This document shows positions 12,001 to 48,822 of a stretch of 64,000 bases of DNA, in pieces. The notes beneath the pieces are model-generated. The model was not told where the DNA came from. It saw only the letters and a list, made by a program, of their open reading frames with translations, and ran no database searches. The DNA comes from an uncultured Acidobacteriota bacterium (GTDB lineage Bacteria > Acidobacteriota > Terriglobia > Terriglobales > Acidobacteriaceae), in contig CAWETV010000001.1 of the NCBI GenBank assembly GCA_963812095.1, positions 354,690-418,689 on the forward strand, read 5' to 3'. Each line of letters begins with the position of its first letter. Within the stretch, counting starts at the first letter, position 1. The translations under genes were made by a program, and so were the position numbers.

Positions 12001-14924
12001 GAAGCAAGGCGACTGTCTCGTTCTGGATGTATTGGAACGGCGGAAACTGGCAGGGCGTCTTTGAAAACGGTTCCGCTGGCTTGTTCTTCCTCAATGACGC
12101 CTTTGGCTTCACCACCGGGAGCTACGACGTCTGGGGTATCCCGAGCAGTGGTCTGGCTAACACCTGGACATACGTGACCGCGGTGTTCAACAACGGCGAT
12201 CCGCATCTGAACCAGCTCTACCTCAACGGCGTTCAACAGACGCTTTCCCAACAGCTAGGCACGACGCCTTCCTCTGCCCAGGTCACGACGCAGGCTAAGA
12301 TCGGCAGTTGGGACAACGCCGGCTACTACTTCACCGGCCTCGTCGACGAGGTGCAGATCTTCAACGGCGCGCTCCCAGCCTCGCAGATCCAGTCCATCTA
12401 CGAGTCCGGCGCGGCGGGCGTCTGCGTTGCAGAAACCCCCACCACCACGGCTGTTACTTCTTCCGAGAATCCGGCGAACACGGGCGATACGGTGACCTTC
12501 ACGGCCACATTCACGCCCAGCGCGGCCACCGGGACGATCACCTTCATGGATGGCACAACGCAGCTCGGTTCGCCCATCACGATCAGCGGCGGGCAGGCGC
12601 AGTTCCCGACTTCGGCGCTGGCCTTTGGAACGCACGCCATCACCGCCGTTTACAACGGCGACACCAACTATAGCGGCAGCACTTCCTCGCCGCTCAGCCA
12701 GGTGATCACGATCAACGGATCGCAAAGCGCCCCGCTGCCCACGGGCCTGGTGTCATGGTGGAAGGGCGACGGCAACGACGGCGATCAGACCGGCCTCAAT
12801 CCGCTCACACTGTTCAACGGCGCCGGGTATGCGCCGGGCATCGTCAACCAAGCCTTCTCCTTCACCAATTACAACGGGTGGAGCAGCAGCTATGCGCGCA
12901 ACAGCAGCGCGCAGTCGATCCCGGCATCGGGCCCAATCGGGTTTGCCGCCTGGGTCAAATACAACTCGAACGACTCGGCAGGAAATAATCCTGAGGTGCT
13001 CACCCTCGACAGTTCCAATGCCTGCGGCGGCAACGGGATTCTGCACGGGATCCTACTGGGGGGCAGGAACACTGTCGCAATCGCCCGCGGTTGCGGCGCC
13101 ACTCCCAACTTCAACTGCTCCGCCAACGTCAACATAGGCGACAACAACTGGCACCTTGTCGTTACCGGTTGGGATGGAACCAACGCGACGGTCTACGTCG
13201 ATGGGGTACAGAAGGCGCAATGTTCGGGCACCGACTTTACCCGCGACACGAGCTATGTTTCACTCGGCGGCCGGCCGGATCAGGACGGCTATAACTCGCC
13301 CTACAACGGCCTTGAAGACGAGGTCCAAATCTACAACCGCGCGCTCACCGCAGCGGAAGTGCAGCAAATTTACGCCGCCGGCAGCTACGGCGTCAGCGAA
13401 GGCGGCCTACCCTCCAACGAAGGGCTCAAGGTCGCCAGCAGCGCGTTGCCCGCCGGTTATGCGGGCACCCCATACACGCAGCCTTTGTCCGCTTCGGGCG
13501 GCTCGGGCACGGGATATAGCTGGACAGTGCCTTCGATCGGCGACCAGTCGTCGTTGGCCGCCCTCGGACTCAGCCTGTCACCCGGAGGCGTGCTCTCCGG
13601 CTCCAATCCTGTCCAAGGCAGCGCTACATTCACCGTGCAGGTCACCGATTCAGCCTCGAACACGGCTACGGCCCCCCTGTCGATCACGATCAATCAGGGA
13701 CTCACGATCACCGGCCCCTTCCCGCTGCCGACAGGCGTACAGGGCCATCCTTACGGGACCCAGTTGAACGTTACGGGCGGGTCGGGCACAGATTACACCT
13801 GGACGGTCGTTTTACAGGACCAGCCCTCTTTGGCGGCGCTCGGCCTGAGCCTCTCGAGCGGTGGTTGGCTCTCCGGCTATCCGAACGCGGGCGAGATGAC
13901 CTTCGGCGTGAATGTCACTGACTCCGTCGGCAACGTAGCTAACAAGACGTTTCCTGTGACGATTAACCCACCCTTGACCATCACCACCAATTCTCTGCCC
14001 TCTGGCACCGTGGGAACCCCGTATTCTCAGCCGCTGAGCTACTCGGGCGGTTTAGGCCCCACTTTCACTTGGTCGGTTTCGCAATCTGACCAAACCCAAC
14101 TGTCGAATCTCGGCCTGAGCCTTTCGAGCGACGGCGTTCTCTCCGGATCCAACCTGACTGCCGGATCGGCAACCTTCTGGGCGCAGGTAACCGATTCGCT
14201 CAACGACCATGCCATGACCGGCCTTTCCGTCACCATCAACAGCAGCGGTCAGAACATAAGCGGCCAGATTTCGCTTACCGACAGCAACTCCTGCAGCAGC
14301 GTCTCTCTGCCCCCGTTCACGGTGAGCATCAACTATCCGTCCGCCCAAACCCCGACGCTCACCACCACCGACAGCTATGGAAATTACAACTTCACGGGCA
14401 TCCCCAGCGGCACCTACACCATCACGCCATCGATGACCGGTTCCAACCTGCCTGAGTACCTCTTCTATCCCTCTTCGTCCGGCGTAACGGTAAACAACGC
14501 CGACGTGACGGGTCAGAACTATCAGGTCGAGCTGGGCTACACAGTCACCGGCACAGTGAATTACAGTGGCTCGGCCACGGGGCCCATTTACGTGGAGATG
14601 ACTCCGAATTGCGGCGGCAACAACAGCGCCACCAACGGCACCAACATCAGCGCGCCGGGCCCCTACACCATCCACGGCGTTCCGCCCGGGAACTACACCA
14701 TCAATGCGTGGCGCGATAACCTCGGCTACGGCCAGCCCAATGCGTCGAATGCAACGGGGTCTACCTCCGGCGTGGCCATCACAACCTCCAATCTCTCCGG
14801 CCAGAACGTCACGCTGAGCGATCCCTCGGCCGTTTCGCTCTCCGGACAGACGCCCAGCTTCAACGTGGCGGGCGCATTCAACAACGGCGTGTTGTTTATG
14901 TTCAACTCGATCACCCAACAATAA
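1..14924 (+). CDS. Giant secreted/cell-surface Ig-like repeat protein (adhesin-like), 5'-partial
   Basis: The reading frame has no stop from nt 3 to TAA at 14922-14924. The TTG at 48 is only the first start-like codon, so the gene continues upstream of the window. The product consists of ~90-105-aa beta-rich repeats. N-terminal type: GQ..L.V.ITG.FT.F...FG.GI.VNSV.V. SbsA/Big_5 type: P.NGATNV..N..I.V.FS.P.DP.T...TFTP...L...T.YTV.V. Three LamG-like blocks, ITFMDG...AVY.GD Ig blocks, He_PIG-like blocks and CarboxypepD_reg-like blocks follow. Confidence 0.9.
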   Translation, partial: GSTQNGTQTLTSNFLLQAPPPPPTPYIGWESPTSGLPGQTLTLDFYGVYTEWNPTTTLTGFYSSEPDSGITINSQQMVTPTHFTANITIGPNATASWSTLTLTTPGTQDYGPEVDYGSFAVVIAQPTLSIVDPGSGMQGAQNQDINVIGQFTAFKDGDTSFSFGTGITVNSVKVLGQTIATVNISIDQLASLGGRSVIATTPSAQGSLAYQVSGAGFSVNPSLAQMTAVTPNTTQQGQSVDVAVTGANTHWSAATTFNFGSGIAVQNVHVVDQTDATMTLVVPALASEGPTWASATTLGEVASMNNAFVVTAGTPLLLSSGPGSLPQQSGATFTILSQATHWLSNPPIVSYGSGVVVTNTSVTSDTSLTAHGYVQPTTYTGWRDLTVTAGSQVLTLYNALYVAPGPAVINSVLDNATGLPQGGQNATLNVTITGINTNWQQGVTKLNFPNVLVNTWSVTSPTTITANITVSITAPAGQVSVTTTTLGEVATGINVFNVIQTQPELLGLSPTSETQAWTGTVNLTGAFTHFNSDPTQGAVTTANFGAGIAVNSVTATDATHLTANITVQPTANLGYRNVSVATGTEALLLTNAFQVMVGNAAISNLSPAYGQQNASYTISVTGSQTHFCYPYDATVCPNATLAHFDGGIGVTSISVTDTEHATVHITVPPGTQPGYYYVSLTTGGEVASIGVPGISTGNTGFQVTSGTAIVSAVNPPTGHQGAKHLSVALTGTFTHFDSINNPTTSVASFGSGITVNSLTVIDATHAAADISIDANATIASRNVTVSTAIETATLTGGFSVLAGVPALVSVAPTSGAAGNTLNVTIAGQFTKFQSGFSSVNMGSDIHVNFITNVTFTSLTANVTIASNAAPGNRDVSVTTNGATQTLSSAFTVLAGTPAITVITPNIGVRNSQVTVSITGLYTNWVNGTTVVSFGPGIAVGSGAEGAAGSVTVNSTTSLAATLTIDPSAGYGPRDLTITTGSEVETVPGGFTVQPQSVSPPSLISISPGINVGGDITINSNIVVVFSQPMDRTTINTGSMTMQLYQNGTFISVLGTVSLDAAGRVATFTPNSLLAPNSQFYFTLSSNIKDATGNGYPGNSWWLYTNFSYAFAPTVVAANPPATSTVGNNVPIQIEFSSPMDQSIASGLTVTANGNPVAGTYSWNSTVNCCSWGPGTILYFSPTSPLSAGSYTVSWDSPLVDTAGNLVTPGSFSFTVGSSPDTAQNYTGPDFQNGVGNVGTNFAPKVNFSKPVDPIDINTGTLLLYNGDSGKYVNGAVTLAPGGMSATFTPTAALLPNTYYRIHMAWGNYDADGNYLYGTDSYFTTGAGTDSAGPSVASISPADQSISIPVNTEIVAHFSEPIDPSAYSITVTPSAGSPAAGTATLSSDNLTLTFVPTDFLQPGTLYTVQVSGFQDMVGISGTTSTTTFTTANSAVLFNLSTGLDASGNLITTGDTVDPHWSYVSTSPNTSGESNFLYPGDASSDAYTGSLKVVAPGNAGWYGGWGANGPSSSWIAINPDSVQGNTYGFYSTSFTMPSVLPPSTHICLAGYWSHDDNALLALNGTPIMGDQGNVYSLSPLNIDITSNLLLGSTNYLTVGFGSTDNSYEGARVQAVVESCGASETAGTSLTGTTSNLVLTSATPGWNAQNVPTNTNIALTFNNALDPATVNSSTLPVMISNQVIAGGYVVTGSGVNFTPDSPFPTNTQVSVNACNGPYDLAGDSAAYNGCGTQLDYFNTGSTATPASTPFQATAITPAANATNVGLRAPVTVTFNRSVNLGTVNQNDWGLFAGDGQSPWCSTNYSHSQDDATLEFNCYPLPSSATMTGMVNSGLQDWQGNGFTANSVLNGQWQFSTTNYDSNTNGTFITIRPGSGAGGVDPNLPLTFYSNLPIDPSTAAGGLQVAVNNTEVSGTVQVLGSGYTMEFTPNAPWPAGALVQWWTTGSIMNTTYETPFNTTSGYFYVAGDTSQAAPAAQTVSPSQNTSNIPLNSVFDLQFNVPINASTIGDGTIYLYDSYTSLHIPVVYSEPQPNEVLMTPVSSTDMTTRVDLPAGHYVYLYFNNGLTSTTSVPANSTGWYYYTGGADDATTPIVTNAVPFNGAKNVGVNATPGVAFNKAIDPVSVNAGTFQVLDGSTPLAGSFWLNSSDTRATFVPNGPLPPSSQLTISLNGVIDPEGHAVTYSSTFGTASGPDYTAPSVVWSSVTSNTSIPTNSMITVQFNESMDSTTFTAGQPGSCGNFDIYDLLNGWNCIGTTLQWSPDQSVAYLTPTTPLAAGRQYYLSINSGTDLAGNQMSGDNFYFSAEYGASTSGTAPAVVAYNPINGDTVGTNAIVEVRFSAPVDPTTVSGVTLAGGGSTVPTTPVLSAGNTVLQLVPAAPLAGGTTYTVSVQSVTDAARHAVTGTLTNSFTTEATYDINPPSLVSYDPPNNATVGTNTVPKMVFSKPLNPIFVSNSTFQMVLCDTNQWIPLAVTQSADGKTITMTPQVALLTDTRYQFYVGWGAQDEEGNTFGYGWYYFYTGDNAVKVGPTVSVSPANGATGMPLNTDVIVSVSAPIDPTSWNQNSIQLLDASMNPVAGTVSEPNNQTLVFRPSANLAPGAAYTVNVGAGAFADANGNPVSAFQSTFTTDTAGTIGSGGLYLSNSPSVTTNSSGAQVFTLTFSQLLDPNSVNPNTLKFMYGPNQSLAISGTYAVSSNLVSFTPTTSYPAGTNIYVYTCNGPTDVLGEYFSGCWNQLTSFYVSSGLADTVPFYVSSVSPANGTANVGREQTISVTFSKAIDPSSIYNNDAVVYAGQDVQDRGSFTLSSDNRTLYFNIGALSNGTTYTISLPMNGITDQSGNYLTADSAGDPLAGPYISTFTTMADPATGDGSVQGENPGNNATGVPIGTMLTLYMNRQVNPSTVAANVIVSINGVVDTGGLVTTAADNYEIQFSPSAGTFPNGATVQWWLSSSVMDVYGNNFNIASGVFYTAAAVDPSSSPQIVAVSPSCCGSVNVPTNAEIDIQYSLPIDATTLSGNVWLNSGQSTPYTVSLASPNVVRIAPNGTTWDKNSWYGFCVNSNVKGLNGVGVPYSCYATYFTTTSSPDSNAGTVTIGPPNGVSNVGTNADIRVQFSKPADRTTVNSSTVSVTAQNNAVPVTFTYNYNGADLVGANVYPVNPLPPSTPVTVNVNGILDYAGNAFNQPSATFTTAALPDYTNPSVAMDFSWWQTGIATNASFTCHYSEPIDPSSVSTSNTYVYSFVTNSAVPATYVWSPDMMSLTMTPKAPLDANSEYYYTCQGAIDLTGNGQNGDTRYFYTGNGASSSGPQLVYANPPSGMQNVPINTSEGPWYGSSLYLLFNEPVSQQSIGNITLTPQNGSAMPISVYFVYENEAVSVQLPWSLSPNTTYTFDVSGVTDLSGNPASATTTSSFKTGSSYDWTSPTVASTDPANGDTPATMPTSVSITFSEAMDPVLIGSNNVYLQLHNTQTVVPTTISFSPDYVTVTLTPVTPLTESTIYDLVVYGNNWWPYDIAGNQFSTGGYVSWNNGYVFSTFTTPSTGAIDGQCDSTTNGKSFSTPPTANLCSAGAAGSMSLSNGSMTWMCNSPNGGNDASCSATVSPTSNANSCTPQPSGLVSWWPGDLNTNDLIGGNNGTLENGAGFATGLLDYAFSLDGSNQFVYVSQPVPTNLQIQNAMTMSAWVYPTAYPTNQGGGPYAMIMGSQQDGASAGAALFYNAQVNNGGISGVPVGSVIFNLGNGSGFAGAETMSQVPLNQWTLVTGVASANNPTQIYFNGTLQPTASYGGTWNGTVAYPQTDWFSIGQQVDRNRPFTGLIDDAQVYNVALSSAQVQSLYTSGNSGSGICQVQTASTTTVSSSGSPAQVGDQVTFTADVSPSSATGTITFMDGSTPLGSAVSLSSGEAQLTTSALTLGVHKITAVYSGDSTYSGSVSSLLNQIENLDGALCAPQPAGLLDWYPAELNANDIIGGNNGAVEGSVAYAPGVVGQAFSMNGSGDVALSLPSLNTSPGSKATVSFWMYWNGGNWQGVFENGSAGLFFLNDAFGFTTGSYDVWGIPSSGLANTWTYVTAVFNNGDPHLNQLYLNGVQQTLSQQLGTTPSSAQVTTQAKIGSWDNAGYYFTGLVDEVQIFNGALPASQIQSIYESGAAGVCVAETPTTTAVTSSENPANTGDTVTFTATFTPSAATGTITFMDGTTQLGSPITISGGQAQFPTSALAFGTHAITAVYNGDTNYSGSTSSPLSQVITINGSQSAPLPTGLVSWWKGDGNDGDQTGLNPLTLFNGAGYAPGIVNQAFSFTNYNGWSSSYARNSSAQSIPASGPIGFAAWVKYNSNDSAGNNPEVLTLDSSNACGGNGILHGILLGGRNTVAIARGCGATPNFNCSANVNIGDNNWHLVVTGWDGTNATVYVDGVQKAQCSGTDFTRDTSYVSLGGRPDQDGYNSPYNGLEDEVQIYNRALTAAEVQQIYAAGSYGVSEGGLPSNEGLKVASSALPAGYAGTPYTQPLSASGGSGTGYSWTVPSIGDQSSLAALGLSLSPGGVLSGSNPVQGSATFTVQVTDSASNTATAPLSITINQGLTITGPFPLPTGVQGHPYGTQLNVTGGSGTDYTWTVVLQDQPSLAALGLSLSSGGWLSGYPNAGEMTFGVNVTDSVGNVANKTFPVTINPPLTITTNSLPSGTVGTPYSQPLSYSGGLGPTFTWSVSQSDQTQLSNLGLSLSSDGVLSGSNLTAGSATFWAQVTDSLNDHAMTGLSVTINSSGQNISGQISLTDSNSCSSVSLPPFTVSINYPSAQTPTLTTTDSYGNYNFTGIPSGTYTITPSMTGSNLPEYLFYPSSSGVTVNNADVTGQNYQVELGYTVTGTVNYSGSATGPIYVEMTPNCGGNNSATNGTNISAPGPYTIHGVPPGNYTINAWRDNLGYGQPNASNATGSTSGVAITTSNLSGQNVTLSDPSAVSLSGQTPSFNVAGAFNNGVLFMFNSITQQ
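2990..10590 (+). repeat. Array of roughly two dozen ~100-aa SbsA/Big_5-type Ig-like domains inside the giant ORF, interrupted by one non-Ig insert at ~4290-4870
   Basis: The motif (V/I).S..P..G.T.V..N..I...FS.P(M/I)DP.(S/T) recurs, followed by ..TF.P...L...T.Y.. and D..GN. Boundaries were estimated from the translation, not from an HMM. Confidence 0.6.
10800..13400 (+). other. Three LamG/ConA-like lectin modules alternating with two Big_3-type Ig modules (domain block of the giant ORF)
   Basis: Each LamG-like block starts C.PQP.GL..W(W/Y)P...N.D.IGGNNG and ends DDAQVYNVALSSAQVQSLY, VDEVQIFNGALPASQIQSIY or EDEVQIYNRALTAAEVQQIY. The Ig blocks read ATGTITFMDG(S/T)..LGS....S.G.AQ..TSAL..G.H.ITAVY.GD.(T/N)YSGS. 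Confidence 0.6.
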
Positions 14925-40331: not shown

Positions 40332-40385
40332 ATAGAACCAACATCAACCTACCAGTTCAAGGGTGATTTTGGCTAAGGTATTTGC

Positions 40386-40411
40386 TTCGAATAAAGTATC
40401 TGTTTCGAATA
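40386..40411. promoter_or_regulatory. Direct repeat TTCGAATA x2 in an AT-rich patch of the nuoA / aminotransferase divergent region (putative operator or promoter element)
   Basis: TTCGAATA occurs at 40386-40393 and 40404-40411. TTCGAA is palindromic, and the surrounding 45 nt are the most AT-rich part of the intergenic region. Confidence 0.25.
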
Positions 40412-40668
40412 GTGAAACGGTGCCGTGCCCACGTCTCTCTGCCGCGGCTCAAGGCGGCCCTCCGCCGGTCACCGGGCTGCGCGCGCGGCAGGGCCAGATC
40501 CGCCATCAAACCCTTTAGTTGAGGCTTTCGCCTGTTCACCGTCGTAGAATAGGTGGGTCCCGGCGCCGCTATGCGGCTCGCCGAAGAAGTTGTTCACGCT
40601 CCGGCACGTCCGGACGGTAGATCGCAAGGTGACCGCCTCCTGGCTGCCGATTGGAGGAGTCGTTCATC

Positions 40669-41859
40669 ATGGCAGCGATCACCGAACACGAATTGCTTCT
40701 CTCGCGCCGCGCCTCGAGGCTCGGCCAGGAAACGGCTTTCGAGGTCCTGAACCGGGCCCGCGCGCTCGAGGCGCAGGGCCGCAGCATCATTCACCTCGAA
40801 ATCGGCGAGCCTGACTTCGACACCCCCTCTAACATCGTGGAAGCAGCCGTCGACGCTCTGCACACCGGCTGGACCCACTACGGCCCTTCGGCCGGACAGC
40901 CCGAACTGCGCCAGGCCATCGCCGCATACGTCAGCCGCACGCGCGCGATCGACGTCCGCCCCGAAGAGGTGGTTGTGGCGCCGGGCGGCAAGCCCATCCT
41001 CTTCTTCACCATCCTGGCGCTCATCGACGATGGCGACGAGGTCATCTATCCCAACCCCGGCTATCCCATCTACGAGTCAATGATCGAATATATGGGCGGC
41101 AAAGCTGTGCCCATCCCCCTGCGCGAGGATCGCGCCTTCACCATGGACGTCGCCGAGCTCGCCCGCCTCATCACTCCGCACACCAAACTCATCATTCTCA
41201 ATTCGCCGCAGAATCCCACCGGCGCCGTCCTGCCGCGCGAAGACGTTGAGCAGGTCGCCCGCGCCATCGGCGATCGCAACATCCTCGTGCTCTCCGACGA
41301 GATCTACACGCGTCTGCAGTTCGAAGGCAGCCCGTTTTCCATCGCGTCCGTTGCTGGAATGCAACAGCGCACCGTCATCCTCGACGGCTTTTCGAAAACC
41401 TATGCCATGACCGGCTGGCGCGTCGGTTACGGCGTGATGCGCGCCGACCTGGCCGCGCACGTCACCAAGCTCATCAACAACTCCGTCTCCTGCACGGCCA
41501 GCTTCACGCAAAGGGCCTGCCTCGCCGCGCTCAGCGGCGACCAGAGCCCCGTCGACCGCATGCGCGCCGAGTTTGAGCGCCGCAGCCGCTTCTTCGTCGA
41601 CGGCCTCAACAACATCAAGGGTTTCCATTGCCACATGCCCAAAGGAGCGTTCTACGTCTTCCCGAACATCTCCCGCACGGGATGGAAGTCAAAGCCCTTG
41701 GCCGACGCCCTCCTGGAACAGGCTGGCGTCGCATCGCTCTCCGGCACTGCTTTTGGCAGCTACGGCGAAGGATTCCTGCGCTTCAGCGTGGCCAACTCGC
41801 TCGACAATCTCAATGAGGCTCTCAAGCGCCTGCGGCAATGGACGACCGCCAGCCTTTAG
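40669..41859 (+). CDS. Class I/II PLP-dependent aminotransferase (aspartate/aromatic type)
   Basis: ..IIHLEIGEPDFDTP......Y....G...LR.AIA.......PGYPIYES....LNSPQNPTG......SDEIY......GFSKTYAMTGWRVGY. GGAGGAG lies 9 nt before ATG 40669. Confidence 0.9.
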   Translation: MAAITEHELLLSRRASRLGQETAFEVLNRARALEAQGRSIIHLEIGEPDFDTPSNIVEAAVDALHTGWTHYGPSAGQPELRQAIAAYVSRTRAIDVRPEEVVVAPGGKPILFFTILALIDDGDEVIYPNPGYPIYESMIEYMGGKAVPIPLREDRAFTMDVAELARLITPHTKLIILNSPQNPTGAVLPREDVEQVARAIGDRNILVLSDEIYTRLQFEGSPFSIASVAGMQQRTVILDGFSKTYAMTGWRVGYGVMRADLAAHVTKLINNSVSCTASFTQRACLAALSGDQSPVDRMRAEFERRSRFFVDGLNNIKGFHCHMPKGAFYVFPNISRTGWKSKPLADALLEQAGVASLSGTAFGSYGEGFLRFSVANSLDNLNEALKRLRQWTTASL

Positions 41860-41940
41860 CTGGGTAAAACAACTCAAGGTCCTGGTGGCCCGGATACATT
41901 TTGGCGAAAGCGGCGAGGATCGGCTTTCAAAAGCCGCGCT

Positions 41941-42420
41941 CTAGGCCTGAGGCGGCGGTGGAGCCGGAGTCAGACCGTGGCGGCGCATGACCTCTGCCAT
42001 CGTTGCGCGGTCCGGCAGGCTGCCTGCTGCGGCGTTGATCACCTCGGCAGCCTCGCGAAAATATTGTGGACCGATTGCCGCCGGCGTGATCAGGCAGAGC
42101 GCCTTCACATCCCGGGTCGTGTTGTTGTCGAAGCGGTGAACGGCGCCGCGCGGAATGCAGAGCGTCTCTCCCGGACCCACGTTGATCAGCTTGCCGTCCA
42201 CGGTCCACGTCAACACGCCGTCGACGCCGTAAATCGTCTCCTCGTAGTGGTCGTGGCTATGGGCTGGAGCCGCCAGGCGCTGCGCGCCCGGGACAATAAC
42301 CTCGAAGACCGCAATCGTGCCCGACGAGTCCTCGCCGGTTACGAGAAAATGCACTGTCAAATGTCCCACTCGGATGACCTCATTGGAAGGATTGATGCCA
42401 TAGGCGGCCGTTTGTGGCAT
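41941..42420 (-). CDS. Cupin-domain protein
   Basis: A 159-aa product with the cupin core PAHSHDHYEETIYGVDGVLTWTVDG....GPGETLCIPRGAVHRFDN. Confidence 0.7.
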   Translation of the reverse strand: MPQTAAYGINPSNEVIRVGHLTVHFLVTGEDSSGTIAVFEVIVPGAQRLAAPAHSHDHYEETIYGVDGVLTWTVDGKLINVGPGETLCIPRGAVHRFDNNTTRDVKALCLITPAAIGPQYFREAAEVINAAAGSLPDRATMAEVMRRHGLTPAPPPPQA

Positions 42421-42447
42421 AGCGTTCCTCCTCTGAGGAGATGCTGT

Positions 42448-43005
42448 TCACTGTCTCTCAGGCACTACAATTTCCAGGCCATATCGCGGAGCAACCTCGA
42501 GCATCCTTTGTACGTCTTGATAGGGCTCTTCAGTCGCTGGCGGCAACTTCATGGCTGGCGCGGGCACGCTGAATTCCTTGAACCATCCTTCAAATCCGGC
42601 GGGAGTCATGAGAATCAGCATCCGCGCCTGCTCCGACTCGACCGCGAAGGTGTGCGGGATGTTGCGTGGCAAGTAGACCATCGTTCCAGGCACAGCCTTC
42701 ATGGTGCGACCGCCTACCGAAACGCTCACCTCGCCCTCCAGTACGTAGAAGGTCTCATCTTCCCGGCGATGGATGTGCGGAGGAGGTGAATTGCCTTTCC
42801 TGCCCACGGCCTCAATCAACGCGAACCGCCCTTGGGTGTCTTCGCCTGTAGCCAAAAAAATCATCAGCGAGCCGTTGTACCAGATCGAACGATCCAGAGA
42901 TTGTCGTCCACGGTTAAATGCGATGGATCCTGTTGGTTCGATCTTTGCGGCGGCCTGCGTTGCCGCCGAAGGAAGGACATCGCTTTCGATGGTCCGCATG
43001 GTCAT
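42448..43005 (-). CDS. Cupin-domain protein (paralog-like neighbour)
   Basis: A 185-aa product with the cupin core PPHIHRREDETFYVLEGEVSVSVGG......GTMVYLPRNIPHTF. Confidence 0.7.
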   Translation of the reverse strand: MTMRTIESDVLPSAATQAAAKIEPTGSIAFNRGRQSLDRSIWYNGSLMIFLATGEDTQGRFALIEAVGRKGNSPPPHIHRREDETFYVLEGEVSVSVGGRTMKAVPGTMVYLPRNIPHTFAVESEQARMLILMTPAGFEGWFKEFSVPAPAMKLPPATEEPYQDVQRMLEVAPRYGLEIVVPERQ

Positions 43006-43179
43006 CTCTTTCTCCTCTCTTCACGATCGTGAATGTGGGGTACTCCCGAGGTGGCCCACGTGAAAATTGCGTAGCCTTAAGTCCTTGCCTGTTTGATTCC
43101 TAAACATCTCGACGCAGTTGCCTCGCAGATCGGAACGGTGGTCCGGCCTGAACGCTTTGGGGATCGTTCTCCGGCCACA

Positions 43180-43359
43180 GAGGGATGCCCCATCCAAGCC
43201 CGCCGCGGCGGGCTTGGGCGGGAAACCACAGAAGTCGGATGGGTGCCCCAGGTCTCGATTTTGAGACCTGGGAACCACCAAAGCTCACAGACGGTAGGGC
43301 TGGTTCTCCCACCACAAATGGGTGCCCCAGGTCTCGATTTTGAGACCTGGGAAACCACC
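43180..43359 (+). repeat. Three tandem REP-like hairpin units (~79-bp spacing), GGGTGCCCCA-box family
   Basis: Unit 1: GGGATGCCCCATCCAAGCCCGCCGCGGCGGGCTTGGGCGGGAAACCAC. Units 2 and 3: GGGTGCCCCAGGTCTCGATTTTGAGACCTGGGAA(A)CCACC, with the 10-bp perfect stem CCCAGGTCTC/GAGACCTGGG. Confidence 0.85.
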
Positions 43360-43378
43360 GCATTCAACTCGGGGACCC

Positions 43379-44254
43379 CTACAGCCCCCGCAGAAACTCC
43401 GGCCGCAAATACCGGTGGTCCCTCGAGCGCAGCACCTGTTCGATCGTCCCGAGCAGTTCCGCCTTCTCTTCCGGTATCCATCCCCTCAGGGGCAGATAGT
43501 TCGAAGCGTGCATGGAGGTGAAGTACATGTGTCCGCCTTCGATCTCGGACAACATGGTATGCAGCTCCTCGAGCTGCATGTACACACCGGGAACCTTGAA
43601 GGCGCCGCTGGCCTCTTCTTCAGCCAGGGGCGTGCCCGGAACCACCGTGACGCTGAGAGCGGCGCCGAAATCCGGCTGAATGCGGCTAAGAAACTGCCCC
43701 GTGCGCTCCGCATGGATCTGGCTGCGCTCCACCCCGCCCAAACCCAGCACCACACTTGCGGAAATGAGAATGCCGGCGGCCTTCACCCGCTCGACAGCGG
43801 CGGCGGTATCGTCAAGGCGCGTGCCTTTGCGGATACGGTCCAGGATCTCCTGGTCCCCGGTCTCCACCCCGAGATAGATGATGCCGAGGCCCAGCTTGCG
43901 CAACTCCGCAAGCTCCTCCGGGCTCTTTTTCAGAATGGACTTGGTATTGCCGTAGACGCCGACGCGCTCGACCCCGGGTAGAGCCTCGCGGATCGCCTCC
44001 AGCATGGGCAAAATCATGCGCTGCGGCATGATCAGGGCGTCGCCATCGGCCAGGAAAACGCGGCGCACGAACGGGGCATAGGGCCGCGCCTCGTCGAGGT
44101 CGCGCTCGACATCCTCCAGCTTGCGGATGCGGAAGCGCTTCTCCTTGTAGGCGCCGCAGAAGGTGCATTTGTTATGCGAGCACCCAATGGTCACCTGCAA
44201 GATCAGACTGTCCGCCTCGCTCGGCGGCCGATAAATGGTCCCCTCGTATCTCAT
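43379..44254 (-). CDS. Radical SAM enzyme of unknown specificity
   Basis: MRYEGTIYRPPSEADSLILQVTIGCSHNKCTFCGAY.. with a downstream GDAL / GVETG radical-SAM core. The Cys spacing as read is C-x4-C-x2-C. Confidence 0.8.
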   Translation of the reverse strand: MRYEGTIYRPPSEADSLILQVTIGCSHNKCTFCGAYKEKRFRIRKLEDVERDLDEARPYAPFVRRVFLADGDALIMPQRMILPMLEAIREALPGVERVGVYGNTKSILKKSPEELAELRKLGLGIIYLGVETGDQEILDRIRKGTRLDDTAAAVERVKAAGILISASVVLGLGGVERSQIHAERTGQFLSRIQPDFGAALSVTVVPGTPLAEEEASGAFKVPGVYMQLEELHTMLSEIEGGHMYFTSMHASNYLPLRGWIPEEKAELLGTIEQVLRSRDHRYLRPEFLRGL

Positions 44255-44397
44255 TCACTGTCCCTGTGAGCTGTGCTGCGTTCTTAACCATTTTATCGGG
44301 AGATTGGGGCGCCGGCCGGGGGTTGGGAGGGGCGGAAAGGCCTGCACAGTTTCACCGTTTCACGGGAACTGTGAGATTGTGCATTTTTCGGCGGTAA

Positions 44398-44859
44398 CTA
44401 GTTGATTCTATTCTTCCGGGTGGACTTCACAGTTTCACCGCCCGAAAAATGAACTTGCGAAGTGCAAGCCTGGAGCGGCGATTTCGAATCGTGAATCAGG
44501 GTACTGTGAGAATTAGCGGGGCTGGCGGAGTTGGCGGCTTTAGCGGAGTTAGCGGAGTTAGCGGAGTTGGCGGAATTAGCGGGGCTAGCGCGGTGAGCCT
44601 GGGGTTGCGAGGCGGCCAGGGTCTTTTCAGCCAGCTCGATTTGCGCCCGGCGGAGGTCGTCCATGGTCCGGAGCGGGGGGAAGGGCGACTTGATGACCCT
44701 GTTCACGATGGCAATCGATCCGTCGCGGCGAAGTCTCATGTTGGGCAGATTCTCGATGCAGAGCTGCACGATGGAGGAGAGGGAACAACCGCGCTCGGCA
44801 GCCCAGACGCGGGCGTTGCGATAGGCGTTTTCGCTGACGTGGACGGTGATGTTGGGCAT
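44398..44859 (-). CDS. Hypothetical protein: RHH (CopG/Arc)-like N-terminus with a low-complexity (ANS)n tail
   Basis: MPNITVHVSENAYRNARVWAAERGCSLSSIVQLCIENL fits a beta-strand/helix/helix RHH pattern. The middle region SPANSANSANSANSAKAANSASPANS is encoded by a 9-nt tandem repeat at 44524-44590. Coding status is uncertain. Confidence 0.4.
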   Translation of the reverse strand: MPNITVHVSENAYRNARVWAAERGCSLSSIVQLCIENLPNMRLRRDGSIAIVNRVIKSPFPPLRTMDDLRRAQIELAEKTLAASQPQAHRASPANSANSANSANSAKAANSASPANSHSTLIHDSKSPLQACTSQVHFSGGETVKSTRKNRIN

Positions 44860-44863
44860 AGGT

Positions 44864-44912
44864 CAGTTCTCAGTTCTCAGTTCACAGTTCTCAGTTCGTA
44901 GTTCGCAGTTCT
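44864..44912. repeat. Tandem heptamer array (CAGTTCN)x7
   Basis: cagttct cagttct cagttca cagttct cagttcg tagttcg cagttct, 5 nt upstream of the ATG of the RHH-like ORF. Confidence 0.85.
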
Positions 44913-45287
44913 CCGGCCCCTGGCCGGGGATCGGGCTCTATTCCGATTGTGCGCCGGGGACGCGAAATGATCTGCAAAGGGCCGATGGCGGCGATAGAGG
45001 GTGGAGCGCGGCGGTTCTGCAGTCCGCCCGGCTCCTGCACACCATTCTGCTACGAAGGGGGGAAATGATGCGCAAAGCGGCGACCGCCATCTTCCCCGAG
45101 ACGCTTGCTTCCCACCCGAACCGCAAAGCACGCGGTCAGGATGGGGCACCGGGCCGGATCGATGGATCGCCCCAGCCGCCCCAGGCTACAGACGCCGGGA
45201 TCGAGCCGCCCCCGTCAGCCAAAGTCGCACTAGGCAGTTTGGCGGACGCAGGCCGAAATTGCTGGTATGAATCCGCCTCGATGAACG

Positions 45288-46373
45288 TTATGCCATCGTC
45301 AGCGTCGGCCTCATCAAGCGCGGACCTTGATTCGAGAACTCCGGCGCATACAGCTTCGCGCATTCTTCCGGGAACAAATTCAAGAGTTGCGCCAAATCTT
45401 TCACATCATACCGAAGCTCTCTGATGTGTGCATTAACCAACTCGCCAAGTAGCGTTGGCCTCTCGATTGGGATGTCAAGCTCGGCTGGTTCCCGCACGTT
45501 GTAATGCAGCTTGCTGAAATTAATGCGCATGTATCGATGCTGCGTTGCGTTGATAGTTCCGAGTTGCTTGGCTCTCTCCAGCAACGCGCCCATCGACACC
45601 CTCCAAACTCCTTTGAGCAACGCCAAATGGGCCAGGCGGACATTTCTCAGTTGATGTCGTATTTCCGATTCCGGCATCAAAAATTCGGAGGCAAACCGAT
45701 TTGCCTCTTCTTCCATCTTTTCAGATGGAAAAGCGTGCATAATCAGGTGGCCAAGCTCATGTGCGAGGGTCCAACGGTAGCGGTCGCCCCCAACGCAGTC
45801 ATCGACATTCATGAGGATAAGCGGTTGATGGCCCGGTATCCACTCGCTCACTGCGTCTGTCCTGGTACTTCCGAATTTGTGCGTGACTATAATCACCCCC
45901 ACGTCCTCGACTGCGGCGGTGAGATTGTTCACCGGTCCCATTGGGAGGTGCAAGAGCGCACGCACCTGACGCGCGATGTTTTCGGGACTTCCAAAATCCT
46001 CGACGGACATGCGAATCAGTTCGATCTCCGGGGAAATGGATGCTGCCAGCATAAGGCGGCTCACCCGCATCCTCGTAAGGTTCAGAACGGCGTGGATGCG
46101 TCGTAGAGTCTTGGCTGGCATATCTGCGCGTTTCCGATGGAAGAAAACGGATGCATTAAACCCGAATATCCGATCCTCCTGGAACAAGAGACCCTTGGGA
46201 TACCTAAGAGCACTGGCAATCAATGAAACCTGGTCGTCATTGGGCTGCGTGATTCCTGCTTCAAACCGCGAGATCAGCGTTTGGGGAATCCTGGTAGTCA
46301 GCGAAAGATCTGATTGCGAGACCTCGCGAGACTCCCGCGCCAGCGTGAGCAGTCCTGCATTGAAATTTGGCAT
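45288..46373 (-). CDS. XRE-family HTH fused to an ImmA/IrrE (COG2856, M78-like) zinc metallopeptidase
   Basis: N-terminus: ..LTLARESREVSQSDLSLTTRIPQTLISRFEAGITQPNDDQV (HTH_XRE). Centre: WTLAHELGHLIMH (HExxH) followed by EEEANRFASEFLMPE, the ImmA/IrrE signature. GC is lower than the flanks (28/60 at 45661-45720). Confidence 0.85.
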   Translation of the reverse strand: MPNFNAGLLTLARESREVSQSDLSLTTRIPQTLISRFEAGITQPNDDQVSLIASALRYPKGLLFQEDRIFGFNASVFFHRKRADMPAKTLRRIHAVLNLTRMRVSRLMLAASISPEIELIRMSVEDFGSPENIARQVRALLHLPMGPVNNLTAAVEDVGVIIVTHKFGSTRTDAVSEWIPGHQPLILMNVDDCVGGDRYRWTLAHELGHLIMHAFPSEKMEEEANRFASEFLMPESEIRHQLRNVRLAHLALLKGVWRVSMGALLERAKQLGTINATQHRYMRINFSKLHYNVREPAELDIPIERPTLLGELVNAHIRELRYDVKDLAQLLNLFPEECAKLYAPEFSNQGPRLMRPTLTMA

Positions 46374-46377
46374 CTTT

Positions 46378-47145
46378 CTACTCGCTTGTGTTCGACAGCA
46401 GCTCTCTCTGGTCTGGGCCGCGCTTGATCCTGATTCGGGTTCGCGTTCTGAGACCGTCTACGATTTGCAACGGCATTTCCACAACCTTTGATCTGGCGGT
46501 GATCTTCTCCAATTCGATGTAAAACTGCAATTTTCCGCTGGAGTAAAATCGCTGAATCATCACGCTCGTAATATTTCTTAGGGCGTCGTCAGCTGTAAAG
46601 CCAAGAACGAACAGGGGCCTAGCCGGAGCAAATGTGAAACGTCCCTGCATCATCTCTAGTGCCGTCTCGGTTGGGTAATTGGAGGGAAATCCATCCTCGC
46701 CGAGCTGTTTATACCAAAAGACGCAGCCGCTAAACAGATGGTAGGTGGTGGAGTTCTTATCAAAGAATTCGGAGTCTCGAATACCAGCAAAGCGCTGACG
46801 GGCCTCGTCGATGACGTATCCATTCAGAACGTTTGCTGAGATTCGCGGATTGAACGGCAAACGAAGCTCCGCAGGAATCCGGTTATACGTGGCCAGCGCT
46901 GCTTCCGGTATCTCCCAGAAGAGATGCCGCACATTGCGGATTTTTGAAACTGTCCAGTCTTGCGAGCCGATTTCCCTCACCAGGAACTCCTTTCTTCTAA
47001 GATGACTATCGCACAATCGCGCAATTCGTGCAATAATTATTCTTAAATTATTCAGAAGGTGGCCCGGCCCTAACGGCGTTGAGAGCTCGTTCCCAACTGC
47101 ACTGGGTCCATCGCTGACGCCGTTAGCCCCGCTCATCCCGGGCAT
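46378..47145 (-). CDS. Hypothetical ~255-aa protein with no recognisable domain; candidate toxin or effector partner of the HTH-ImmA/IrrE gene
   Basis: Its stop TAG lies 4 nt before the downstream ATG, on the same strand. Low GC (23/60 at 46501-46560). Candidate ATG starts are 47145 and 47136. The track start 47220 runs into a high-GC REP-like sequence and is disfavoured. Confidence 0.6.
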   Translation of the reverse strand: MPGMSGANGVSDGPSAVGNELSTPLGPGHLLNNLRIIIARIARLCDSHLRRKEFLVREIGSQDWTVSKIRNVRHLFWEIPEAALATYNRIPAELRLPFNPRISANVLNGYVIDEARQRFAGIRDSEFFDKNSTTYHLFSGCVFWYKQLGEDGFPSNYPTETALEMMQGRFTFAPARPLFVLGFTADDALRNITSVMIQRFYSSGKLQFYIELEKITARSKVVEMPLQIVDGLRTRTRIRIKRGPDQRELLSNTSE

Positions 47146-47475
47146 TGGCGGGTGGTCGAGACTCTTCCCGCCCAAGCGAGCTTGGACGGGGCACCCCCGG
47201 AAGATTCTGTGGCTTTCCATCCTTCGCGCGAGATTTCCTCAGGGGCTAAAGCCCGCCCTTCTTTTGCGGGCTTAAGGCACCCTTCGGCTTCGCCCAGGGC
47301 AGGCTTTGAAGTCGTGCCCGTGGCTAAAGCCCGCGCAGAATCGGATGGCGTTATGCGGGGGTTGAAACCCCCGCCTCCCTCCATAGTTGGATGGGCTGTG
47401 GTGGTTTCCCAGGTGCCTCCGCCGCGGCGGACGAGGCACCTGGGGCACCCGTTTGTAGCGGTGAAATGCGCCTCG

Positions 47476-47504
47476 CTACGGGTAGATGCCGCGAATCTGC
47501 CCCC
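47476..47504 (-). pseudogene. Relic duplicate of the gdhA 3' terminus (..QIRGIYP*)
   Basis: The reverse complement GGG CAG ATT CGC GGC ATC TAC CCG TAG matches the real end GTG CAG ATT CGC GGG ATC TAT CCG TAA (47563-47591) at 24/28 nt. Within the seven aligned codons plus stop, all differences are synonymous. It is separated from the real end only by the heptamer array. Confidence 0.7.
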
Positions 47505-47566
47505 TCAGTCCCTGAGTCCCTATTCCCTATTCCCTATTCCCTATTCCCTGTTCCCTGTTCCCTTAC
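47501..47566. repeat. Tandem heptamer array (CCCTATT family), 9 units
   Basis: cccctcagt ccctgagt ccctatt ccctatt ccctatt ccctatt ccctgtt ccctgtt ccctta. The last unit contains the gdhA TAA. Confidence 0.9.
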
Positions 47567-48822
47567 GGATAGATCCCGCGAATCTGCACGGCTTCGGCTA
47601 CGCGGCCGATGCCGACCATGTTGGCGGCGATGCGCATGGGCACCTTGCGCTCCTCGTGCATCTTCACGACGTCGCGGAAGCTGGTCTTCATGACCCGCTC
47701 CAGCCGGTTGTAGATGTCCTGCGCCTCCCAGAAGAGGTGCGACTCATCCTGCACCCATTCGAAGTAAGAGACGGTGACGCCGCCCGCATTGCAGAGAATG
47801 TCGGGGATGATGAAAACTCCTTTGCTCTGGAGGAGGCGATCGGCCGCCGGATTCAGCGGGCCGTTGGCGGCCTCGGCGACGATGCGCGCGCGCACGCCGC
47901 CGGCGTTCCGTTCGTCGATGGCGTTTTCAAGAGCCGCCGGGACGAGGATGTCGCAATTCATGGTGAGCAGCTCGGCGTGCGAGATCTCCTCGCTCTCAGG
48001 GAATGCGCGCACGTGGCCGGTGAGCGCCTTCATGCGGATCAGCTCGGGAATATTGAGGCCGTTGCGGTTCAGGATGGCGGTGGCCGAGTCGCAGACGGCG
48101 ATGACTTTGGCGCCCGCGTCGTGAAGCATCTGCGCCGTCACTGAGCCGGCATTGCCGAATCCCTGCACGGCCACGGTGGCGCCCTTGAGCGGCGTCTTCA
48201 GGTGCTCGCAGGCGCATTCGATGGTGTAAAAAACCCCGCGCCCGGTGGCCTCATTGCGTCCCAGTGACCCGCCCAGGCTGATGGGCTTGCCGGTGACCAC
48301 GCCGGGAATTGCATAGCCCTTGGTCATCGAGTAGGTGTCCATGATCCAGGCCATGGTCTGCGAGTTTGTGTAGACGTCGGGCGCGGGAATGTCCTGCTCG
48401 GGGCCGATGAGGGGAAGGATGGCGCTGGTGAAACGCCGCGTCATCCGCTCGAGCTCGACTCTCGACATGCTCTTGGGGTCGCATGTGATGCCGCCCTTGG
48501 CGCCGCCGAAGGGGATGTTCACGACTGCGCACTTCCAGGTCATCCAGGTGGCCAGGGCTTTGACCTCATCGAGCGTCACCTGGGGGTGGTAGCGGATGCC
48601 GCCCTTGGCCGGCCCGCGCACCGAGCTGTGCTGCACGCGATACCCCTCGAAGCGGTGGATATGCCCGGTTTCCATCCGCACCGGGACAGAGACCGTAAGC
48701 ATGCGCTCGGGATACTTGATCATCTCTCGAATGTCAGGATCCAACTCCAGCGCATTGGCCGCGGTATCGAAGTTCTCCATGGCCACGTCGTAAGCATTGC
48801 CAGTACTCTTTGTCTCAAGCAT
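47563..48822 (-). CDS. gdhA: Glutamate dehydrogenase (Glu/Leu/Phe/Val dehydrogenase family)
   Basis: ..RFEGYRVQHSSVRGPAKGGIRYHP.VTLDEVKALATWMTWKCAVVNIPFGGAKGGI.CDP....VAVQGFGNAGS. ATG 48822 is preceded by GAAGGAGA. Confidence 0.95.
   Translation of the reverse strand: MLETKSTGNAYDVAMENFDTAANALELDPDIREMIKYPERMLTVSVPVRMETGHIHRFEGYRVQHSSVRGPAKGGIRYHPQVTLDEVKALATWMTWKCAVVNIPFGGAKGGITCDPKSMSRVELERMTRRFTSAILPLIGPEQDIPAPDVYTNSQTMAWIMDTYSMTKGYAIPGVVTGKPISLGGSLGRNEATGRGVFYTIECACEHLKTPLKGATVAVQGFGNAGSVTAQMLHDAGAKVIAVCDSATAILNRNGLNIPELIRMKALTGHVRAFPESEEISHAELLTMNCDILVPAALENAIDERNAGGVRARIVAEAANGPLNPAADRLLQSKGVFIIPDILCNAGGVTVSYFEWVQDESHLFWEAQDIYNRLERVMKTSFRDVVKMHEERKVPMRIAANMVGIGRVAEAVQIRGIYP

Follow-up and report, generated by a model that had tools for sequence, protein, structure and literature searches.

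The stretch of DNA analysed here, called the window throughout, comprises 64,000 nucleotides of contig CAWETV010000001.1 from an uncultured Acidobacteriota bacterium. On its minus strand, next to gdhA, two adjacent open reading frames (ORFs) form a compact cassette that resembles the RosmerTA toxin-antitoxin systems (Table 1). The upstream gene, here called T, encodes a protein without a recognizable domain, while the downstream gene, rmrA, encodes an XRE helix-turn-helix (HTH) fused to an ImmA/IrrE zinc peptidase. The junction between them reads TAG-AAAG-ATG, with the T stop codon at 46378-46380 and the ATG of rmrA at 46373, exactly as in an earlier note made from the letters of this DNA. The 4-nt spacer suggests that the translation of T and RmrA is coupled. 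In related loci, the distance between the two genes, taken from annotated or called gene coordinates, ranged from an 8-nt overlap to a 9-nt gap.

The earlier note had placed the start of the upstream gene at 47145, giving a protein of ~255 aa. Comparison with homologs moved the start to the GTG at 46980 and shortened T to 200 aa. All 27 close homologs were ~200 aa long, and their alignments to the long ORF began at its residue 81, which corresponds to this GTG; an AAGGAG element lies 6 nt 5' of it. The window copy was the only one among the aligned loci with a GTG start instead of ATG. At the DNA level, the homology of the window to every related locus began at ~47042-47061 and stopped at ~45259-45334. 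Because the homologs start at GTG 46980, the DNA homology starts at ~47042-47061 and the block upstream of the gene is conserved, the 55 extra N-terminal residues of the ~255-aa ORF are taken to be translated promoter and operator DNA. By the same comparisons, the whole feature is predicted to span ~45288-47053, with the T gene proper at 46378-46980.

The region 45288-46373 is predicted to encode a full-length RmrA-type antitoxin. Pfam recognized both the XRE HTH and the ImmA/IrrE peptidase that the note had read in this gene, as HTH_3 and Peptidase_M78 respectively. The zinc site HELGH occupies residues 205-209 (45747-45761) and opens the longer motif HELGHLIMH (residues 205-213). The EEEANRF motif lies at 45693-45713, and residues 221-235 read EEEANRFASEFLMPE. 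The HExxH...E signature was kept in every complete RmrA partner across all loci. Fourteen PADLOC RmrA profiles matched the window protein nearly end to end (best E=2.2e-54, residues 3-329), which bore out the likeness to RosmerTA suggested in the note. The phage protein family phrog_2439 matched as well (E=8e-74). The NCBIfam spr1629 repressor/antitoxin model gave E=9e-33, and its score of 113.8 bits is far under the 335-bit equivalog cutoff; hence the window protein is not an ortholog of RipB (Spr1629). We also considered the CapH/CapP regulators of the cyclic-oligonucleotide-based antiphage signaling system (CBASS). The PADLOC matches to capP (E=8e-15) and capH (E=8e-7) were partial and far weaker than the RmrA matches (2e-54), and no CBASS-type gene was present among the annotated neighbors in the window, which are all metabolic. 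This identity was rejected.

The association of the two genes extended well beyond the window. An RmrA homolog directly followed T on the same strand in all 30 loci that had downstream sequence, which represented ~21 distinct T sequences. Co-occurrence had been proposed in the note as a check, and it held throughout this set. The pairing was preserved even in metagenomic T relatives of 16-22% identity, and on five plasmids, from Polaromonas, Rhizobium, Roseicitreum, Devosia and Klebsiella. It was also found in the Acinetobacter phage vB_AbaM_ABMM1 (genes 30-31), where gp30, a protein of 209 aa annotated as hypothetical, is encoded by a gene that overlaps an RmrA-like gene. The hhalign probability of gp30 against the T superfamily profile was 99.4%. 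The identities of T and RmrA to their homologs dropped in step across loci (73/83, 56/73, 54/70 and 42/60%), with T diverging faster.

RosmerTA systems consist of an RmrA zinc-peptidase antitoxin and varied RmrT toxins (10.1101/2022.05.11.491447; PMC10440598), and attempts to transform an rmrA deletion failed (10.1101/2022.05.11.491447). In the NetFlax network, the ImmA/Rosmer antitoxin node D25 connects as a hub to numerous toxin partners, and 58% of the D25 pairs are toxin-first (PMC10440598). RmrA neutralizes unrelated toxins, and the system of the Gordonia phage Kita defends against phage; in this RmrT(D5)/RmrA(D25) pair, the toxin has predicted transmembrane (TM) regions and depolarizes the membrane (PMC10440598). 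In RipA/RipB (Spr1630/Spr1629) of Streptococcus pneumoniae, a further Rosmer-family pair, the toxin is soluble, acts on the DnaN clamp and is dependent on ClpX (10.1101/2025.09.02.673660). In three Pectobacteriaceae, transposon insertion sequencing (Tn-seq) showed rmrA and clpX to be essential (PMC13566846). COG2856-Xre fusions had earlier been described in operons with toxins (Makarova et al. 2009, PMC2701414), although the partners reported in 2009 were PIN and RelE, not the T family.

The window pair shares with RosmerTA (Millman et al. 2022; Ernits et al. 2023) the antitoxin architecture of an XRE HTH followed by ImmA/IrrE, matched by the RmrA profiles over the full length. It also shares the bicistronic, toxin-first order and the mobile, defense-type neighbors. 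An intact HExxH, adjacency on the same strand and a pairing conserved among homologs were all found in the window pair. The window RmrA matches the spr1629 model, and the RipA/RipB pair is likewise toxin-first, with a soluble toxin acting inside the cell. Because of the antitoxin, the architecture and the context, we assigned the cassette to the RosmerTA type, and it is probably a stand-alone, horizontally acquired two-gene operon of this kind.

No match was found for T in Pfam, NCBIfam, PADLOC (E<=1), PHROGs (E<=1 for phrog_15813) or PDB sequences, so the note had rightly seen no domain in the upstream protein. Likewise, no housekeeping homolog of T, which the note had listed as a point to check, appeared in the Pfam and NCBIfam searches. 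Against PDB chains, only chance matches were returned, such as ribosomal protein S3 (E ~0.1). The close T family, at 49-90% identity, came from metagenomes, and in the genome collection its members were confined to metagenome-assembled genomes of Acidobacteriaceae, including a Granulicella. A profile search of 1.84 billion cluster representatives expanded this to a superfamily of 224 proteins at E<=0.001, nearly all of ~200 aa. These 224 members are cluster representatives at 50% identity, and 71 of them were aligned and tested. Forty-three of the 71 reached phrog_15813, a family without assigned function (best E=5e-23), while the window T did not (E<=1). Searches of the phage collection with the distant member P0074 (tblastn) gave no match, and with the ABMM1 member gave only the self-match. 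Six plasmid protein accessions were sought in the NetFlax supplementary files and none was there, although other accessions of the family could still be included. Taken together, T is by these searches a member of a widespread family that neither databases nor solved structures explain.

This places T outside the known RmrT proteins, as judged by the PADLOC RmrT profiles and one canonical enterobacterial RmrT clade. The RmrT of coliphage Tritos, the partner of an RmrA-like gene, served as a positive control and matched PADLOC PDLC03933/34/37/40 (E=7.5e-10), which shows that the PADLOC library holds RmrT profiles able to detect a genuine RmrT. The window T, unlike this control, matched none of them. 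The note's view of the partner as an uncharacterized family was consistent with this result and with the missing fold match described below.

Several points weigh against the RosmerTA assignment. None of the 71 superfamily members matched Pfam, NCBIfam or any PADLOC RmrT model. The superfamily was also unrelated to the Tritos RmrT and to a 9-sequence profile of the Tritos clade (hhalign probability 0.05-0.14%). A scan of the close-family alignment against IMG/VR viral contigs found no relatives. The module's neighbors in the window are housekeeping genes rather than a defense island. The toxin role of T is assigned from gene position only, and the class of target suggested for it below is drawn from residue conservation alone. 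The putative toxicity of T, its neutralization by RmrA and the protection against phage are likewise proposed by association with the characterized pairs. However, since RmrT is defined as variable, the missing RmrT profile match lowers the case for a known RmrT and not the case for a Rosmer-type system.

One T homolog bears on the polarity of the pair. On the plasmid of Devosia sp. A8/3-2 (L032:3447-4102; loci retrieved for comparison are numbered with the prefix L), T is frameshifted into two ORFs, while the ImmA/IrrE gene is intact and an N-6 DNA methylase gene adjoins. A broken T beside an intact RmrA is as expected if T is the harmful partner. The roles could in principle be reversed, with the zinc peptidase as the harmful effector and T as the antitoxin, an inhibitor or a substrate of the peptidase. 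In Makarova et al. (2009), COG2856 appears among the predicted toxins, as a protease that is often found in fusion with an antitoxin HTH (PMC2701414), and the strictly conserved active site of the peptidase would suit such a role. However, if the peptidase were toxic, the Devosia arrangement would kill the cell. In addition, the HTH-peptidase was protective in every tested Rosmer-type system, as rmrA was undeletable in one, RipB neutralized RipA and rmrA was essential in others. We regard the reversed arrangement as highly improbable.

The genomic surroundings of the pair bear on a second alternative, in which the cassette is the switch of a mobile element. Here the HTH-peptidase would be a fused ImmR/ImmA-type or cI-like repressor-protease, and T a non-toxic cofactor, sensor or anti-repressor for excision or lysogeny. 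ImmA/IrrE peptidases are best known from ImmR/ImmA of ICEBs1 (PMC2701414; PMC10440598), which likewise combines Peptidase_M78/COG2856 with an XRE HTH. Full-length RmrA-like proteins are filed as a phage 'transcriptional regulator' (phrog_2439), and in several phages such proteins carry repressor-like annotations. Some T-RmrA pairs lie beside capsid and DnaB genes, DUF932 and DUF7168 genes, resolvase and integrase genes, or an integrase. Others adjoin a transposase and an Eco57I/MmeI-type restriction-modification gene, insertion sequence (IS) elements, HigB, DNA methylases, or reverse transcriptase, SMC-domain and IntS genes. The same pair recurs in unrelated contexts, namely plasmids, IS-rich regions and chromosomal islets, which speaks against such a switch. 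Phage ABMM1 has separate repressor and antirepressor genes nearby, and the RmrA proteins that were tested are antitoxins (10.1101/2022.05.11.491447; PMC10440598; 10.1101/2025.09.02.673660; PMC13566846).

The window copy itself also differs from ImmR/ImmA. In ICEBs1, a separate HTH protein and protease regulate the integrase of the element. In the window, both functions are fused in 361 aa, the conserved unit consists of two genes and a promoter, and there is no element to regulate, with no tRNA, integrase or phage gene near the cassette. An ImmR/ImmA-type module was therefore rejected for the window pair, which, in answer to the note's question of a prophage, sits between metabolic genes. The broader reading of the family as a mobile-element switch appears unlikely.

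Upstream of T, an alignment of 10 loci with an overall DNA identity of 66-88% revealed a conserved regulatory region. The family consensus, from 5' to 3', consisted of two GAATA direct repeats 11 nt apart, a -35 element TTGCAn, a 17-nt spacer with a GCA...TGC dyad, the extended -10 element TGnGATAAT, AAGGAG and the start codon. The GAAT and GAATA cores were invariant, and the dyad overlaps the -35 element and the spacer. A generic promoter scan did not pick up this promoter, because only 8 of the 12 consensus positions match; it emerged from the comparative alignment. The sequence comparison shows what appears to be a single conserved sigma-70-like promoter driving T and then RmrA, and the GAATA repeats are a candidate operator for the RmrA HTH.

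In the RosmerTA interpretation, and by analogy with tested systems, RmrA would bind the promoter at the dyad and the GAATA repeats and repress the operon. RmrA, perhaps with the help of ClpXP, would also hold T in a harmless state. This control would be lost when phage infection or some other stress inactivates or diverts RmrA, for example via the RmrA peptidase. The freed T would arrest the growth of the infected cell, with abortive infection or addiction as the outcome.

T is basic (pI 9.3) and has no TM segment, with a maximum 19-residue hydropathy (KD19) of 0.97, so it is predicted to be a soluble protein and not a membrane toxin. This sets it apart from the Kita toxin with its TM regions. 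AlphaFold2 (AF2) models built from 27 sequences (pLDDT 84.9, pTM 0.79) and from 71 sequences (pLDDT 89.5, pTM 0.77) had the same topology. Three N-terminal helices are followed by a three-strand meander (residues 70-93), a short helix (104-111) and three further strands (123-160). The C-terminal part consists of a low-confidence linker (~164-179) and then a basic segment. Three Foldseek searches with two T models, twice against PDB and once against BFVD, returned nothing at E<=0.001. The best PDB matches (E=0.12-0.14, TM<=0.28) and the best BFVD match (E=0.012, TM 0.12) were insignificant.

In the 71-member alignment, K91 was invariant, and A49, N101, T104, G127 and Y/F128 were at least 90% conserved. 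The conserved polar set of the superfamily comprised R46, K91, K/Q92, N101, T104, Q112, S/T135, R182, R184 and K186, mostly basic or amide residues, while no acidic column was conserved. A PD-(D/E)XK fold had been suggested by the alpha-beta-beta-beta-alpha-beta order, the invariant K91 on the third strand and recurring weak nuclease matches. It was rejected because no acidic residue is conserved and the nuclease fold matches are insignificant (E>=0.14, TM<=0.28). As a guess, and as the weakest step of the argument, T might work without metal-dependent catalysis, by binding to an acidic or phosphate-bearing target; candidates include nucleotides, nucleic acids and parts of the ribosome or replisome.

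These features allow a more specific but tentative proposal, which we consider doubtful in its full form. T would represent a metal-independent effector family with a new fold, distributed among Acidobacteriota, Pseudomonadota and phages, whose target is unlike those of the known Rosmer toxins. Proteolytic control of T by RmrA, in concert with ClpXP, would act through the linker (~164-179) and the basic C-terminal segment, which is conserved. If this were true, T would be a soluble and tractable system in which to study how antitoxins with a zinc peptidase detect phage and release their toxins.

The same basic character of T can be read differently. RmrA could be a self-cleaving or stress-activated repressor in a circuit of the IrrE/DdrO type, and T a beneficial, non-toxic effector induced on de-repression, such as a repair or protection factor that binds nucleic acids. 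IrrE-family proteases are described as cutting XRE repressors after DNA damage (PMC6868357; PMC2701414). The basic T, with its conserved Arg, Lys, Asn, Thr and Gln, would be suited to nucleic-acid binding, and the weak, non-significant Foldseek matches include PprA as well as nucleases. However, all of these fold matches are insignificant (E>=0.12, TM<0.3), and the distribution of the family is patchy and mobile, with atypical GC. The plasmid, phage and IS-rich locations, the defense-candidate neighbors and the one pseudogenized T fit selfish or defense modules better. A stress circuit of this kind seems rather improbable, and a RosmerTA-type operon is the interpretation that we prefer.

RosmerTA is a validated anti-phage toxin-antitoxin family, to which T would add a large partner family that is always coupled to RmrA. 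Diverse Rosmer toxins were already expected; the T family is nonetheless widespread and tractable. Detection rules that demand matches to both an RmrA and an RmrT profile probably miss T-RmrA systems. T is soluble by prediction, confidently modeled and has few conserved residues, which suits the biochemistry of toxin action and of its control by RmrA. Experiments are feasible without culturing Acidobacteria, because Acinetobacter baumannii, Klebsiella and an Acinetobacter phage carry homologs.

The composition of the cassette differed clearly from its surroundings. Its GC content of 0.527 was the lowest of all 1.7-kb segments within the 64 kb, in line with the AT-richness that the note had pointed out. 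Of the counts made there by hand, 23/60 and 40/60 were right, while 28/60 should read 26/60. GC at third codon positions (GC3) was 0.61-0.62 in the cassette and 0.79-0.84 in gdhA, the class IV aminotransferase, radical SAM and other neighboring genes. On one flank lies gdhA, with aminotransferase and oxoacid:ferredoxin oxidoreductase genes upstream. On the other flank, a repeat-containing ORF of 153 aa is followed by a radical SAM gene, two cupin genes and another aminotransferase gene.

The nearest relatives share the position of the cassette. Their T is 90% identical, and the neighboring genes agree as well, with a gdhA of 92% identity in locus L013 and a radical SAM gene of 81% identity in L012. 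In L012, an FRG-domain gene occupies the slot of the 153-aa ORF of the window. In relatives whose gdhA is 80-86% identical, the synteny upstream is kept, whereas T, RmrA and the radical SAM gene are absent. Synteny in these genomes resumes at nuoA/B-like genes (window ~39.2-40.3 kb), and the 3-6.5 kb between hold unrelated metabolic genes. In loci L034-L059, the variable interval, which corresponds to window ~40350-47560, contains a phosphoesterase/lactonase-like gene of ~950 aa, with or without GH39 and araA-like genes. In related Acidobacteriaceae, this gene set replaces the cassette, radical SAM, cupin and aminotransferase genes of the window. A strict empty site was sought among the relatives and no clean insertion boundary was found, because the relatives differ from one another over the full stretch between gdhA and nuoA/B. 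The variable interval and the atypical composition support a horizontal acquisition of the cassette next to gdhA, the origin that the note had suggested.

FRG-domain genes (Pfam PF08867; PADLOC defense candidate PDC-S15) adjoined Rosmer-type pairs in three independent contexts, two of them acidobacterial loci with the T family and one the coliphage Tritos with a canonical RmrT (Table 1). This may reflect recurrent co-localization or a functional link.

Table 1. Features of the T-RmrA cassette and its flanks in the window, and FRG-domain genes beside Rosmer-type pairs in other loci
Feature	Position	Strand	Evidence
Putative toxin/effector gene T (RmrT-like by position), GTG start, 200 aa	46378..46980	-	Start set by 27 homologs
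RmrA-type antitoxin/repressor gene, 361 aa: XRE HTH, ImmA/IrrE (M78) zinc peptidase, C-terminal region	45288..46373	-	PADLOC, PHROG and NCBIfam matches
HTH_3 (XRE) DNA-binding domain, RmrA residues 12-59	46197..46340	-	Pfam PF01381, E=4.9e-7
Peptidase_M78 (ImmA/IrrE) domain, RmrA residues 156-268	45570..45908	-	Pfam PF06114, E=2.8e-16
Spacer AAAG, 4 nt, from T stop TAG to RmrA ATG	46374..46377	-	Read in the sequence
Shine-Dalgarno AAGGAG, 6 nt 5' of GTG	46987..46992	-	AAGG.G invariant in 10/10 aligned loci
Sigma-70-like operon promoter: -35 TTGCAC (47033-47028), 17-nt spacer, extended -10 TG-n-GATAGT (47010-47005)	47005..47033	-	Family consensus
Two GAATAA direct repeats, 11 nt apart (47053-47048, 47042-47037); candidate operator for the RmrA HTH	47037..47053	-	10-locus alignment
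REP-like hairpin, ~140 nt downstream of RmrA stop; flank marker	45111..45145	-	Minimum free energy (MFE) -28.6 kcal/mol (61-nt context), z=-2.05
REP-like hairpin, ~115 nt upstream of conserved promoter region; flank marker	47167..47190	-	MFE -24 kcal/mol, z=-2.0
FRG gene, acidobacterial locus with T family	L012:2026-2865	-	PDC-S15, E=7e-90
FRG gene, acidobacterial locus with T family	L014:675-1571	-	PDC-S15, E=2e-40
FRG gene, coliphage Tritos with canonical RmrT	L031:1-1227	-	PDC-S15, E=3e-85

The repeats that the note had described around the cassette, namely elements resembling repetitive extragenic palindromes (REP), a heptamer array and a relic gdhA terminus, were all found. The two REP-like hairpins flanking the cassette have the head motif GGTGCCCCRTCC in common, which is found at 8 places in the window (1.4 expected). 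The hairpin downstream of RmrA may act as a terminator, although it has no U-tract. Other GGTGCCCCRTCC-headed elements are scattered through the window, and ORF translations suggest further repeats between the cupin and radical SAM genes. The spacer between gdhA and the cassette also contains strong hairpins (47403-47449 and 47345-47384; e.g. -36.5 kcal/mol, z=-4.2), with further elements at ~43000-43500.

Two heptamer arrays were observed. One (TCCCTAT x6.7, 47517-47563) abuts the stop codon of gdhA, and the other (TCAGTTC x7.3, 44863-44913) ends 4 nt before the ATG of the 153-aa ORF. These arrays could be products of repeat-mediated variation or belong to a REP-type element. Just past the array at gdhA, the 3' coding end of this gene (47564-47587) is copied at 47477-47500, over 24 nt with 92% identity. 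The arrangement suggests that an insertion into the end of gdhA duplicated its final codons or replaced them.

The 153-aa ORF itself (44398-44859, minus strand) contains the 9-nt tandem repeat TTAGCGGAG x8.7 at 44513-44590, which encodes ANS repeats. It had no Pfam or PADLOC match and no homolog in any fetched locus. A different ORF, of 154 aa, lies directly 3' of RmrA in L014:3561-4025 (plus strand) and L007:11837-12298, the two copies being 86% identical. It has weak PADLOC Cas13-ApeA matches (E=1.6e-5) and could be a third gene of some cassette copies. Far from the cassette, a single giant ORF (4958 aa) fills the opening quarter of the window, at positions 48-14924 of the plus strand.

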